Below are positions 47,885 through 54,752 of a stretch of 64,000 bases of DNA, one piece after another (positions within the stretch are counted from its first letter, which is position 1; every line of letters begins with the position of its first letter). The stretch covers positions 995,393 to 1,059,392 of the forward strand of contig JAXGZN010000002.1 in the NCBI GenBank assembly GCA_040776945.1. The letters run 5' to 3'. Made by a program: the position numbers and the translations under genes. The stretch comes from Methanomassiliicoccaceae archaeon (lineage in GTDB: Archaea > Thermoplasmatota > Thermoplasmata > Methanomassiliicoccales > Methanomassiliicoccaceae). The notes under the pieces are model-generated. The model was not told where the DNA came from and searched no databases. It was given only the letters and a program-made list of their open reading frames with translations.

Positions 47885-48124
47885 CTAACGCGGCCTCTTA
47901 TGCTCCTGCTCCGATTCGTTGCCTCGAATGCAGTAGTACATGAACTGCAGGTCCAGGTCCTTATGGACCGGGCAACCGGGGCAAAAGCACACCTTCATCT
48001 CCTTGATGCAGGAGCTCCTTTTGCTCATGCAGAAGGCGAGCTCGTCCTTCTCCTTTGCGCACTCCAGATAGGTGGGGCAGGGCGGACAGTTGCACTTCGA
48101 GCGATACTCATCCATCTTGGACAT
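47885..48124 (-). CDS. Cys-rich DUF2769-like protein
   Basis: Same 10-Cys spacing as 46487-46756. Confidence 0.82.
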   Translation of the reverse strand: MSKMDEYRSKCNCPPCPTYLECAKEKDELAFCMSKRSSCIKEMKVCFCPGCPVHKDLDLQFMYYCIRGNESEQEHKRPR

Positions 48125-51928: not shown

Positions 51929-52348
51929 CTAAAATTTCGAGCGGTACGGCACCGTCTCGATGTATCTGGTCAATCCCGCGATCTCGTTGGGCACGTCGAT
52001 GTCGGCCTCGGCGATCGTCCTGTTCCTGGCGATCCAGCTCTTGGACCTCCGGTCCCACTCGAGGCCAAGGCTGCGCAGGCGCCCCTTGATAGGCCGGGTG
52101 TTGCCGCTGATGATTGTGTCGTTGCCGCTGCGGGTGATGGTCACCGAACCGAGCAGGGAGGGGTACTTTGACCTCTCCTTTCTCAGAAGTTCGTCCATTC
52201 TCGCCTTTGCACCGGGATCGCTCATGTCGGCGGGGCCGATCCTCGACTCGATCCATCGGTGAAGGCGCTGGTAACTGGGGCTCGGTCTGACCGCTCCTCC
52301 CTGGCCGTTGGAACGATGCTTGCCGAACAGATCTCCGAAGAACCCCAT
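51929..52348 (-). CDS. Hypothetical protein with DUF5710-like motif
   Basis: ISGNTRPIKGRLRSLGLEWDRRSKSW; ATG 52348. Confidence 0.6.
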   Translation of the reverse strand: MGFFGDLFGKHRSNGQGGAVRPSPSYQRLHRWIESRIGPADMSDPGAKARMDELLRKERSKYPSLLGSVTITRSGNDTIISGNTRPIKGRLRSLGLEWDRRSKSWIARNRTIAEADIDVPNEIAGLTRYIETVPYRSKF

Positions 52349-52515
52349 GGTGATCACTGTTGGATGAAAGAGAGGGCGGAGAACCACTCCCGTTCAACCG
52401 CCCAGGGTAGTACGCTGGACGAATGTCCTCATCATCTCCCCGAAGGGATCATGCGGAGTGCGAACAAGTAAACGCTCTAGGAAAATAAAAAGATAACCTT
52501 ACAGAGAGAGGGCGG

Positions 52516-53820
52516 TCAAATGCGGACCATGGCGTCCACGAGCTTGAACTCACCGCTCCCGTGCATGAGAGGATGGTCCAACGGAGCGATCCCATGCTTT
52601 CTGAGGAAAGCAGCATGCCCCCGGCTGGCGAAATTGCGCGCCCGCCGGTCCGGAGGGCACTCGATGCAGGAGACGAACCGCGCGGGCGGCTCAAGTTCCC
52701 GCATGTCCCGGTCCACGAGCGGCCCCATCCTCAGGGAGACGCGGTCGTAGTTCCTGAGCTGTCCGGCGGAGGGGGAGCGCACCGAGTCCAGTATCTTCTG
52801 GTATCTGTTCCTCTGGACCGTCTTCAGGCAGATCGCCTGGTATGACCTCGGCAGCTCGAAGATGTAGATGTCCGTAAGGTCGAGATCGCTCTGGGCCCGC
52901 TCCAGCCTCTCGATCGCGCTTTCCAAGGGGCCCTTCGGCAGCGACAGCAGAACGGCGTGGCGCCCCTTCGTCCCCAGGACCGAGCTGGTGATGAAGGTCG
53001 TGAACCCGTACTCGCTGTCGTCCTTTGGGGCCTCGTTCCCCGCCGCCCTCTTCCCTTTGGCCGGCAGCCTCCAAGTGAACCTGGGGACCCTCCTACGACC
53101 TTCCAGCCCGGGGATGTCGTCGATCCAATCGGCCACCGGAGAGCGCAGACGGTCCTCCGGCACCACCTGGCAGCAGTACCCGGTCTTCGAGTTAACGGTC
53201 CCCGGGAGGCGGATGATCCTCCTCGTGTCCACCGTTACCGAAGCATCGATCCTGATGCCCATGCCCGTGACCGCATCCGCTATCGCCTTCCTGCGCCGGA
53301 TGATGGCCTTCTCCCTTTCCCGCATGTCCGGCTCGATCTCGCTGACGGCGTCCGCGAAGACCAGGTGGAAGCCCTTGCTGCCGCTGAAGGCGGCGTACTT
53401 GAGATCGTGCCCTTGGGCGGACATGGCGTCCAGGAGCGCCACCGCGTCCTTCCTGGCCCGCTCCAGGTTGAGCAGGGAGAGAGGCTTCCGGTCCAGGTCG
53501 AACGATAGGTCGTTGTGAAGAATGATGTTTCCCGGTCCCCAGTGGTCCGTCGCCTTCTTCGGCCTCGGCGCCACCAGGGTCGGGTTCAGGTACGTGGAGG
53601 TCGAATAGTACACGTCCAGCGGACGCAGCTTGATGAGCCGTTCCTGCAGGTCCTCGGGTGAGCGGATTATGTCCTTGACCTTGTGGAAACGTCCGTTGGG
53701 CAGGAGGAGCCTGAAGTGCCTCCGGTTGACATCGGTGATGGGGCCGAGATCGGGCGGGTTACTCCGATAGAAGTCGCTGAGCCGGCCGGCGAGGTCGTCC
53801 TGTTCCATCCTGCGGAGCAT
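52516..53820 (-). CDS. PriS-like archaeo-eukaryotic primase-polymerase (AEP) with extra C-terminal domain
   Basis: DVYYSTSTY, motif I DLSFDLD, motif II FSGSKGFH, motif III IDASVTVDTRRIIRLPGTVNSKTG; about 170-aa extra C-terminal domain. Confidence 0.85.
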   Translation of the reverse strand: MLRRMEQDDLAGRLSDFYRSNPPDLGPITDVNRRHFRLLLPNGRFHKVKDIIRSPEDLQERLIKLRPLDVYYSTSTYLNPTLVAPRPKKATDHWGPGNIILHNDLSFDLDRKPLSLLNLERARKDAVALLDAMSAQGHDLKYAAFSGSKGFHLVFADAVSEIEPDMREREKAIIRRRKAIADAVTGMGIRIDASVTVDTRRIIRLPGTVNSKTGYCCQVVPEDRLRSPVADWIDDIPGLEGRRRVPRFTWRLPAKGKRAAGNEAPKDDSEYGFTTFITSSVLGTKGRHAVLLSLPKGPLESAIERLERAQSDLDLTDIYIFELPRSYQAICLKTVQRNRYQKILDSVRSPSAGQLRNYDRVSLRMGPLVDRDMRELEPPARFVSCIECPPDRRARNFASRGHAAFLRKHGIAPLDHPLMHGSGEFKLVDAMVRI

Positions 53821-53924
53821 AGAGCGGCGGTTATTAATTTGGTTGCGTTGCCGGCCTTCCCTCCCGTCCCCACGGCGATGGGCGGCCGCACCCGGCGGGG
53901 ATAGGATAATGCTTCCGCCGGCCG

Positions 53925-54752
53925 ATGGCCCTGGTCATGAGTGGGAAGGAGGAGCACCGGGAGCGGCTCGAGCAGCTGCTGACCGGCCATATCGAGCGCT
54001 TGGAGACCGAGTGGCTGAAGGAGCACCTTGCCTCCAGGTCCGACCTTCCGGGACCGCGGGGGAACATCGAGCTGGCGGCCGCCTTCGCGGACCTCGCCGC
54101 GGAGCTCTCCGCCGAGCGCGGGGAGGAGATGTGGTCGCTCGCCGTCGCGCTGTCGGGCGTGACCGCGGAGGAGGCCCCGGTGAACGATCCACGGGAGATC
54201 ATCGCCTTCACGGGAGCTGTCGCCGTAGGGAGCATCGGCGCCGCCCGGAGCGATAGGTCCGCGGATGCTTTCCTGCGGCTCAGGGAGATGTCGAGGGATC
54301 CGAGGTGGAGGACCAGGGAGGGCGTGGCCATGGGGCTCCAGCGGCTGCTGGCTGCGGACATGGCCGCCGGCCTGGCCGAGCTGGGGAAATGGATCTCGGG
54401 CGAGGATTGGCTGGCCATGAGGGCGGTGGCGGCAGGCGTGGCCGAGCCTCCCCTGCTTATCGACCAGCGCGCCGCCCTGGGGGCGCTCGATCTACACAAG
54501 AGAATCATCGACCGCGTCCTCGCGTCCGGCGACCGGACCTCGGAAAGCTTCAGAACGCTCAGGAAGGGGCTCGGATACTCGTTCAGCGTGGTCGTCGGAG
54601 CATGTCCGGAAGATGGTTTCGTCTACCTTGAGGAGCTCGCTGCCACCTCTGACAAGGACGTCCGCTGGATCGTGAGAGAGAACCTCAAGAAGAAGCGGCT
54701 CGCAGGACGGTTCCCCCGCGAGGTGGAGCGTGTCCTGGCCCTGATGGCCTGA
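53925..54752 (+). CDS. HEAT-repeat protein (AlkD/DNA alkylation repair-like)
   Basis: SDLPGPRGNIEL, DPRWRTREGVAMGLQ, DKDVRWIVRENLKK helical repeats. Confidence 0.7.
   Translation: MALVMSGKEEHRERLEQLLTGHIERLETEWLKEHLASRSDLPGPRGNIELAAAFADLAAELSAERGEEMWSLAVALSGVTAEEAPVNDPREIIAFTGAVAVGSIGAARSDRSADAFLRLREMSRDPRWRTREGVAMGLQRLLAADMAAGLAELGKWISGEDWLAMRAVAAGVAEPPLLIDQRAALGALDLHKRIIDRVLASGDRTSESFRTLRKGLGYSFSVVVGACPEDGFVYLEELAATSDKDVRWIVRENLKKKRLAGRFPREVERVLALMA

Follow-up and report, generated by a model that had tools for sequence, protein, structure and literature searches.

Priming in archaea is currently explained by PriS-PriL, complemented by PriX in Sulfolobus, with DnaG being of doubtful relevance. 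Two described enzymes, PolpTN2 of the Thermococcus plasmid pTN2 and the monomeric Nanoarchaeum primase, consist of a PriS-like archaeo-eukaryotic primase (AEP) fused to a PriL-like module, as far as the accessible parts of the reports go (PMC3973330, PMC10250227), and the accessible parts of three further papers treat only canonical or fused PriS (PMC3914693, PMC5862659, PMC7414124). Here we analysed a stretch of 64,000 nt (the window; positions 995,393 to 1,059,392 of contig JAXGZN010000002.1, assembly GCA_040776945.1) from a Methanomassiliicoccaceae archaeon, which carries on its minus strand the gene of a PriS paralogue, termed PriS2 in the following (52516..53820), and downstream of it a small gene, the partner (51929..52348). 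An earlier note, made from the letters of this DNA alone, had combined both genes with a divergent gene for a HEAT-repeat protein on the plus strand (53925..54752, 275 aa) into one module. All three open reading frames (ORFs) are present at these positions with the motifs quoted for them in place; the unit at the locus, however, comprises two genes and not three, the HEAT gene being a neighbour outside it. We lean towards the view that PriS2 and its partner are a two-subunit primase-polymerase that works without PriL. We found no description of the PriS2 family in the searchable literature, although such paralogues may have been mentioned before.

PriS2 and the canonical primase of the same genome

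The genome is 99.84% complete at 2.17 Mb, the window lies on its contig 2, and the closest protein and contig matches are named Methanomassiliicoccus. Searching it with PF01896 returned a canonical PriS on contig 1 (88.8 bits), whereas the PriS2 gene reached only 24.7 bits; PF04104 returned a single PriL (126 bits), likewise on contig 1. Indeed, no priL is found within the 64-kb window, as the earlier note had observed, the sole PF04104 match of the genome lying on the other contig. The separate canonical priS and priL on which the reading of that note depended both exist on contig 1, so that PriS2 is not the only priS of the genome. Because canonical PriS and the only PriL sit on the other contig, PriS2 does not appear to be the replicative primase; it is a true PriS paralogue, additional to canonical PriS and PriL. 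The same two-copy pattern with a higher-scoring canonical PriS was seen in five of five other genomes, taken from loci whose records are titled Poseidoniales, Poseidoniaceae, Methanoregulaceae or Bathyarchaeota and from an untitled metagenome chromosome. By curated score PriS2 falls outside canonical PriS: the protein obtains 25.9 bits with PF01896 (residues 121-219; cut-off 26.8), the six-frame search gives 29.6 only after adding neighbouring in-frame stretches, and all NCBIfam PriS equivalogs stay under their cut-offs (NF001641, 46.2 versus 326; NF001639, 37.8 versus 577; TIGR00335, 30.5 versus 143.5). It does belong to the AEP superfamily, with motifs I (DxD), II (SGxxGxH) and III (hD) placed on an AEP fold. 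The ORF comprises 434 aa, and translation probably starts at M5 (ATG 53808, giving 430 aa), where the alignable part of the homologues begins; the closest of them (94% identical) is 430 aa long.

The N-terminal domain (residues 1-245; 53086..53820, minus strand) contains motifs I (D108/D110), II (H152) and III (D198) intact, which agrees with the compact catalytic domain of about 225 aa with all three motifs that had been noticed before. An AlphaFold2 model built from 82 homologues (mean predicted local distance difference test score, pLDDT, 91.1; predicted template modelling score 0.63) consists of two domains connected by a low-confidence linker at about residues 246-270. Aligned with VIA, the catalytic domain matches Sulfolobus solfataricus (Sso) PriS (1zt2_A) with Z 21.7 and a root-mean-square deviation of 2.8 over 216 residues at 24% identity, followed by a Pyrococcus PriS structure (Z 20.2), LigD-type structures (13.5-14.4) and PrimPol-type structures (5-12); Foldseek matched 5of3_A with E 4e-12. 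In the profile alignment to Sso PriS, DLSFDLD (D108, D110) falls on FDIDAD, FSGSKGFH (H152) on FSGNRGFH and VDTRRIIRLPG (D198, R204) on IDVKRLIRIPN. D108, D110, H152, D198, R204 and N210 are invariant in the 82 homologue sequences from which the conservation columns were derived, and C217 is the single invariant cysteine of the family. With all catalytic residues kept, the N-terminal domain seems to be catalytically competent. A LigD-type polymerase of non-homologous end joining, a kind that cooperates with Ku and an ATP-dependent ligase mostly encoded close by, was considered as an assignment and rejected: the genome gave no match to Ku (PF02735) at E<=1, and the LigD PolDom structures reach Z 13.5-14.4 compared with 21.7 for PriS (ligase neighbours were not searched).

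Two features set the catalytic domain apart from Sso PriS. Residues 109-145 of the latter (about 37 aa between motifs I and II), a stretch that we take to be the PriS zinc site, are without counterpart in PriS2, and the invariant Asn210 of PriS2 stands against the His of RIPNSLH in Sso PriS. Archaeal PriS is ascribed an H-R-H signature at three nucleotide-binding positions, according to the part of the source available (PMC5862659); by spacing, the signature of the PriS2 family would be H-R-N.

The C-terminal domain (residues 268-434; 52519..53019, minus strand) has no match in Pfam. Folded alone from 29 sequences it reaches pLDDT 94.6, and AEP or primase-polymerase chains make up 17 of the top 18 rows in a VIA search of about 48,000 PDB representatives, with Z of 4.4-6.3, values that lie under the caution line of 8 set by VIA itself. 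AsfvPrimPol, LigD PolDom, HP0184, eukaryotic Pri1, S-2L PrimPol, RepB', CAPP, MPXV E5 and human PrimPol are among these chains. Foldseek gives AsfvPrimPol as best match (E 0.011), and the Atlas structure search a PF24387 'AEP-like' cluster at a template modelling score of 0.55. These scores are weak singly, but the enrichment is consistent, and we therefore read the domain as an AEP-like fold, a weak but consistent assignment. K342, R364, S399 and H402 are conserved in it, only L315, K342, S399 and H402 being invariant in a broad alignment; since no acidic triad is conserved, the domain is probably non-catalytic. A profile of the domain retrieved 506 representative proteins at E<=1e-3, and most of the 150 listed are 370-480 aa long with the domain at their C-terminus. 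A few Met-starting proteins (P0271, P0296, P0303, P0316, P0376 and P0393) contain nothing but this domain in their roughly 160 aa and could be either split genes or a free-standing form.

The small partner gene

The ORF of the partner extends to a GTG at 52387 (51929-52387, minus strand, 152 aa). Its true start is probably M14 (ATG 52348), which yields 139 aa: seven of nine other aligned sequences begin there, two of nine carry a similar N-terminal extension, and the Atlas sequence of the partner also runs from M14. The protein combines an N-terminal MGFFGDLF motif with a conserved helical core, PSYQRLHRWIESRIG ... AGLTRYIETVPYR, and hmmscan with Pfam returned nothing relevant for it and nine homologues. 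Common to the partners are an MG[LFI][FL] start, a low-complexity linker and a helical core of about 65 aa with the consensus PxYxR[IL]xxW[IV]xxxxG ... KGFxxYIxxxxYxxL. Starts of the types MGLFD, MGIFD, MGFFG and MGFL are shared by far-apart lineages (window 52325-52348, minus strand; partners L037-L060 and L061-L087), and this start motif looks like an amphipathic peptide. In some Methanoregula-type partners (L039, L047, L049, L054) an N-terminal double CxxC-CxxC ribbon (FCEQCG ... FCEQCGARL) replaces the MGLF start.

Among ten relatives examined at the genus level, full-length PriS2 occurs in five (G001, G004, G005, G006, G010), and exactly these five contain a strong match to the partner, located downstream on the same strand at a distance of 133-164 nt from the PriS2 gene. 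The remaining AEP matches in the genus are weak and partial, like the one given by the canonical PriS of this genome (E 1.9e-4). For a wider view, 215 relatives of the AEP were returned among species-representative genomes; the best 80 of these 215 underlie the counts of AEP loci given here and yield 12,171 ORFs of at least 40 aa. In distant lineages, the original partner profile unexpectedly matched ORFs that immediately precede the AEP gene. After rebuilding the profile on the core and iterating it, 34 of the 12,171 ORFs matched, each of them next to the AEP gene and in its orientation (27 upstream, 7 downstream). The upstream partners belong to Methanoregula, Bathyarchaeia, Hodarchaeota and DPANN and mostly lie a few bases from the AEP gene; the downstream cases are Methanomassiliicoccales-type loci, one Micrarchaeota locus and one uncultured archaeon. 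Thus the small gene is a conserved partner of PriS2 whose adjacency is kept though gene order varies by lineage, and the part of the earlier proposal that treated AEP and small protein as a unit is borne out both by the co-occurrence in the genus and by the complete adjacency across archaeal phyla.

These data bear on the possibility that PriS2 is an alternative catalytic subunit that shares the single PriL and swaps with canonical PriS under some conditions, the small neighbour being a regulator or unrelated. Such sharing would suit a genome with one PriL and two PriS-type genes, and a catalytic domain whose nearest structures are those of heterodimeric PriS (Z 21.7 and 20.2). However, PriS2 has its own small gene beside it in every lineage visible to the profile (34/34), possesses an extra domain foreign to canonical PriS and lacks the segment between motifs I and II. 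Moreover, no priL was found beside the AEP gene in the 80 loci mapped, Pfam having been run on representatives of 14 neighbour clusters only. We consider PriL-sharing unlikely, and keep to the pair that works without PriL.

In the window, the core of the partner is interrupted by a lineage-specific insert (51989..52156, minus strand; residues ~78-133 in the 152-aa numbering) with the motif GNTRPIKGRLRSLGLEWDRRSKSW, present exactly as it had been described. This insert (GxTxPxK...LGxxWD...KxW) is found in all 10 close sequences of the alignment and is absent from the partners of other lineages, where the core runs uninterrupted. The label 'DUF5710-like' given to the small protein in the earlier note stands only at the level of this motif. 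The sole match of the DUF5710 model (PF18974) in the six-frame genome is 52019-52075 on the minus strand, GRLRSLGLEWDRRSKSWIA, which covers model positions 15-33 of 44, that is, the LGxxWDxxxKxW part of the insert; with 11.7 bits (E 0.6) against a cut-off of 26.5 it does not amount to family membership. The likeness thus concerns a motif inside the insert and not the identity of the whole partner. An Atlas feature search with the insert gave 0.86 as best value and 0.82 for a cluster consisting to 35% of DUF5710, both under the 0.9 line. Searching plasmids with the 57-aa insert by tblastn returned 185 records, none better than E 0.09 and the best listed under J-domain proteins; these matches may be chance or a weak lead.

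In Poseidoniales-type loci, other small genes follow the AEP gene on the same strand, with cluster c1 in 30 loci and cluster c23 in 5. The c1 proteins have a Cys-rich C-terminus with a weak AN1 match (E 0.0035); both clusters have the YxRI motif in common with the partner, as do c23 and one c1 member (L075) an M[GS]F[FL] start. Five longer PriS2 homologues among the 120 listed contain no partner motif, their extra length being due to N-terminal extensions and longer linkers.

Neighbourhood, transcription and distribution

The third gene of the proposed module fared differently. It was assigned to the HEAT-repeat proteins, which is weak for this protein alone (HEAT_2, PF13646, E 0.067) and holds via its homologues, 33 of 34 aligned ones matching with a best E of 3.9e-6. 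The divergent arrangement across about 100 bp is likewise correct: the spacer measures 104 bp (53821-53924). This arrangement is what speaks for a three-gene damage-tolerance system made up of the AEP, a DUF5710-like protein and a lesion-sensing, AlkD-like HEAT protein, together with faint matches of the HEAT family to AlkD, namely a profile match to AlkD2 (6m9m) at E 0.18 and one of 34 members matching PF08713 at E 0.048. In sequence, the AlkD likeness is not significant. A survey of 40 relatives found HEAT homologues in G001, G002 and G015. Four of the five relatives that have the pair lack the gene, and in the fifth, G001, it lies on a contig other than that of the AEP gene; G002, in turn, has it without any AEP match and G015 with only a weak partial one. 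Apart from the gene of this genome itself, no HEAT homologue was found in the 80 AEP loci. The HEAT gene thus occurs without the AEP gene and the AEP gene without the HEAT gene, the three-gene reading is contradicted by the co-occurrence data, and we regard it as highly improbable. The family is large, with 1835 matches at E<=0.001 among 8000 candidates scored. As the gene lies about 5 kb from the saccharopine-dehydrogenase gene in G002, it is part of the local backbone. In the window a saccharopine-dehydrogenase-type gene flanks the two minus-strand genes, and an acyl-CoA synthetase gene lies beyond the HEAT gene. Genus relatives show peculiarities in these flanking genes (G008:C15:3974-5396; G009:C1:191316-192956): one has three full-length saccharopine-dehydrogenase-type genes plus a stop-broken copy, another an in-frame TGA around the acyl-CoA synthetase match. 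Elsewhere in the window (47885-48124, minus strand), a Cys-rich ORF of 79 aa (CNCPPCPTYLEC ... CPGCPVH) sits between unannotated ORFs of 373 and 430 aa.

The 104-bp spacer contains a TATA-box-like element, TTATTAAT (53831..53838), which by sequence reading lies 23-30 nt upstream of the M5 ATG of PriS2. RNA-library contigs (four libraries from four studies, at least 99% identical) span the partner gene in full and the AEP gene in part, and one of them reaches 53815; since RNA libraries can contain DNA, these contigs do not prove transcription. The spacing of TTATTAAT, the 430-aa homologue and the contig ending at 53815 fit a transcript that begins at M5 or just before it, so that we infer a near-leaderless archaeal transcript of PriS2. 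A T-rich tract on the coding strand, TTTTTATTTT (52482..52492, minus strand), follows 24-36 nt past the stop codon of the AEP gene and is possibly an archaeal oligo-T terminator. The four contigs that cover the partner gene stop short of this tract, at 52428, 52443, 52445 and 52450. The stretches 53820-54526 (most of the HEAT gene) and 52451-52570 (the AEP-partner spacer) had no RNA contig, a gap that proves nothing.

According to their record titles, the 80 loci stem from Methanomassiliicoccales, Poseidoniales, Methanoregula and other Methanomicrobiales, Bathyarchaeia and Nitrososphaerota, with further titles naming Hodarchaeota, Undinarchaeota, Micrarchaeota, Woesearchaeota and Iainarchaeum. 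The PriS2 family was present in 25 of 151 genomes sampled evenly across the phylum (this genome included), with 17 of 20 genomes positive in one family and none in many others. Short contigs binned as bacterial (L057, L067 and L088: Thermodesulfobacteriales, Parachlamydia and Verrucomicrobiales) carry an archaeal AEP gene, and the partner in L067 is identical to that of L055 from a Nitrososphaerota bin; these bins are probably cases of mis-binning.

The patchy occurrence (5/10 in the genus, 25/151 in the phylum) is also what would be expected if the pair were the cargo or remnant of a mobile element, a replication module of a plasmid or virus, or a part of an anti-virus defence. G004 and G005 hold the pair in one shared context, G001 and G010 in different ones, and in the present genome the intact pair is inverted with respect to three common anchor genes some 6-9 kb away. 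Weak matches to phage primase families in PHROGs (best E 5.6e-5) might point in the same direction; they concern the catalytic core only. The viral collection tells much the same: none of the 73 viral loci kept matches past residue 358, most cover about 40-270, and the best (E 4e-15) covers residues 13-225, so that the likeness is distant and confined to the core. The surroundings argue against such an origin. No integrase, transposase, helicase or capsid genes were found among 30 neighbours in three genomes (G004, G001 and this window), whose products serve metabolism, transport or signalling or match nothing in Pfam; the window contains no tRNA gene, its GC content is even across 46-56 kb, and PADLOC assigns none of the three proteins to a family. 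Housekeeping genes, those of succinyl-CoA synthetase, precede the AEP gene in 26 Poseidoniales-type loci. A mobile or defence origin is thus improbable to us. A mobile-element PrimPol of the PrimPol-PV1 or pRN1-like type, the genes of which reside in plasmids, viruses or integrated elements, was also tried as an assignment and discarded, no helicase, PriCT or winged helix-turn-helix domain being present and no element genes among the 30 neighbours.

Helicase genes were seen near the AEP gene in two arrangements. In 30 Poseidoniales-type loci (L062-L109; e.g. L070:10069-12885) the gene of a ResIII/DEAD helicase of about 930 aa converges on the small gene that follows the AEP gene, which could be plain synteny or a functional link. 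In 3 of the 80 loci a DEAD-box helicase gene on the same strand adjoins the AEP gene (L060:9503-10789, Hodarchaeota; L063:6403-7881; L080:6449-7891). The latter arrangement would suit an enzyme that acts on RNA instead of DNA, as an RNA polymerase or terminal transferase in RNA repair or processing, and AEPs with RNA-repair roles are on record, being mentioned in the part of the source available (PMC5862659). Yet the helicase pairing is limited to these three loci, and the nearest structural neighbours of PriS2 are all DNA primases or repair polymerases; we give an RNA-directed role as little chance as the mobile or defence origin.

A candidate PriL-free primase-polymerase and its relatives

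Among the alternatives, each of which has less support than a PriL-free pair, use of the host PriL ranks first, then a mobile or defence origin, then an RNA-directed role. For the PriL-free pair we envisage that PriS2 and its partner form a complex which, with no need of PriL, would make or extend nucleic-acid chains. Handling of the template or the initiating nucleotide and recruitment, for which other AEPs rely on PriL, PriX or a zinc finger, might fall to the pseudo-AEP domain, to the partner or to both. Different lineages add differing small modules to the partner core, here the GxTxPxK...LGxxWD...KxW insert and in some Methanoregula-type proteins the double Cys-rich ribbon. The role would most likely be non-replicative, that is, repriming, gap filling or another specialised synthesis, which is the least supported step of this proposal.

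Complex prediction for PriS2 with the partner returned a score of 0.00 in two runs, which speaks neither for nor against binding. Several observations weigh against a PriL-free pair. No repair genes travel with the pair, and nothing ties it to DNA damage. The Z scores of the C-terminal domain fall short of the caution line, as mentioned above, and a profile comparison of the N- and C-terminal domains (P 0.21) gave no sequence relation or sign of internal duplication. The T-rich tract and the contig ends raise the possibility that PriS2 and partner are transcribed separately here, a weak hint at a separate partner transcript in this genome. The partner profile compared with c1 and c23 by hhalign gave P values of 0.006 and 0.003 at probabilities of 6-12%, by which homology is not established; because the profile misses these downstream genes of Poseidoniales, about half of the loci give no support for a universal partner. 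Finally, the patchy spread in genus and phylum would also fit an accessory or transferred gene.

Going further, one may tentatively propose a second, undescribed archaeal primase-polymerase that is independent of PriL, in which a dead AEP-fold domain and a modular adaptor take over the initiation and template handling of the PriL C-terminal domain, PriX or a zinc finger, serving repriming or gap synthesis; nearly every member of one Thermoplasmatota family would have it, with a scattered occurrence in methanogens, Bathyarchaeia, Asgard and DPANN. In this full form the proposal is clearly less probable than the pair as such. In any case, our analysis adds to the archaeal enzymes a conserved second PriS-type protein that retains its catalytic residues, shows an unusual architecture of two AEP folds in tandem and has a putative accessory subunit of its own, and the pair suggests that many uncultured archaea, and some cultured ones, synthesise nucleic acids by a route not studied so far. 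The pair offers a natural test case for how an AEP may start a chain without an iron-sulfur subunit of the PriL type. As the family is compact (430 aa plus 90-140 aa) and the models are confident, biochemical and structural work is feasible straight away.

Compared with described systems, PriS2 resembles PriS (S. solfataricus 1zt2 and 5of3; Pyrococcus 1v33 and 1g71) in the catalytic fold, in motifs I-III and in the Arg after motif III, and its conserved N-terminal region RHFR...DVYYS recalls REF...LFYS of Sso PriS. It differs from PriS in that an extra AEP-like C-terminal domain replaces the small PriS C-terminal domain, and in that a small partner gene of its own, and no priL, lies beside it; it also coexists with a canonical PriS. 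The partner can be likened to PriX and PriL by analogy only, as a non-catalytic subunit that might supply initiation-site or template binding; unlike them it comprises 90-140 aa, belongs to no Pfam family and has no Fe-S motif. With PolpTN2 and the Nanoarchaeum primase PriS2 shares the combination, in one chain, of an AEP domain and a second module that replaces a separate large subunit. This module is PriL-like in those enzymes but of AEP-like fold in PriS2, and PolpTN2 is plasmid-borne whereas the PriS2 family is chromosomal with no element genes nearby. The PrimPol-type AEPs (human PrimPol, CAPP, pRN1 ORF904 and AsfvPrimPol) are stand-alone and PriL-free enzymes with an extra domain for initiation. 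AsfvPrimPol is among the best structural matches of the PriS2 C-terminal domain (Z 6.3), and Pfam detected no zinc finger, helicase or PriCT domain in PriS2. By its catalytic domain, however, PriS2 is far closer to PriS (Z 21.7) than to the PrimPol clade (Z 5-12).

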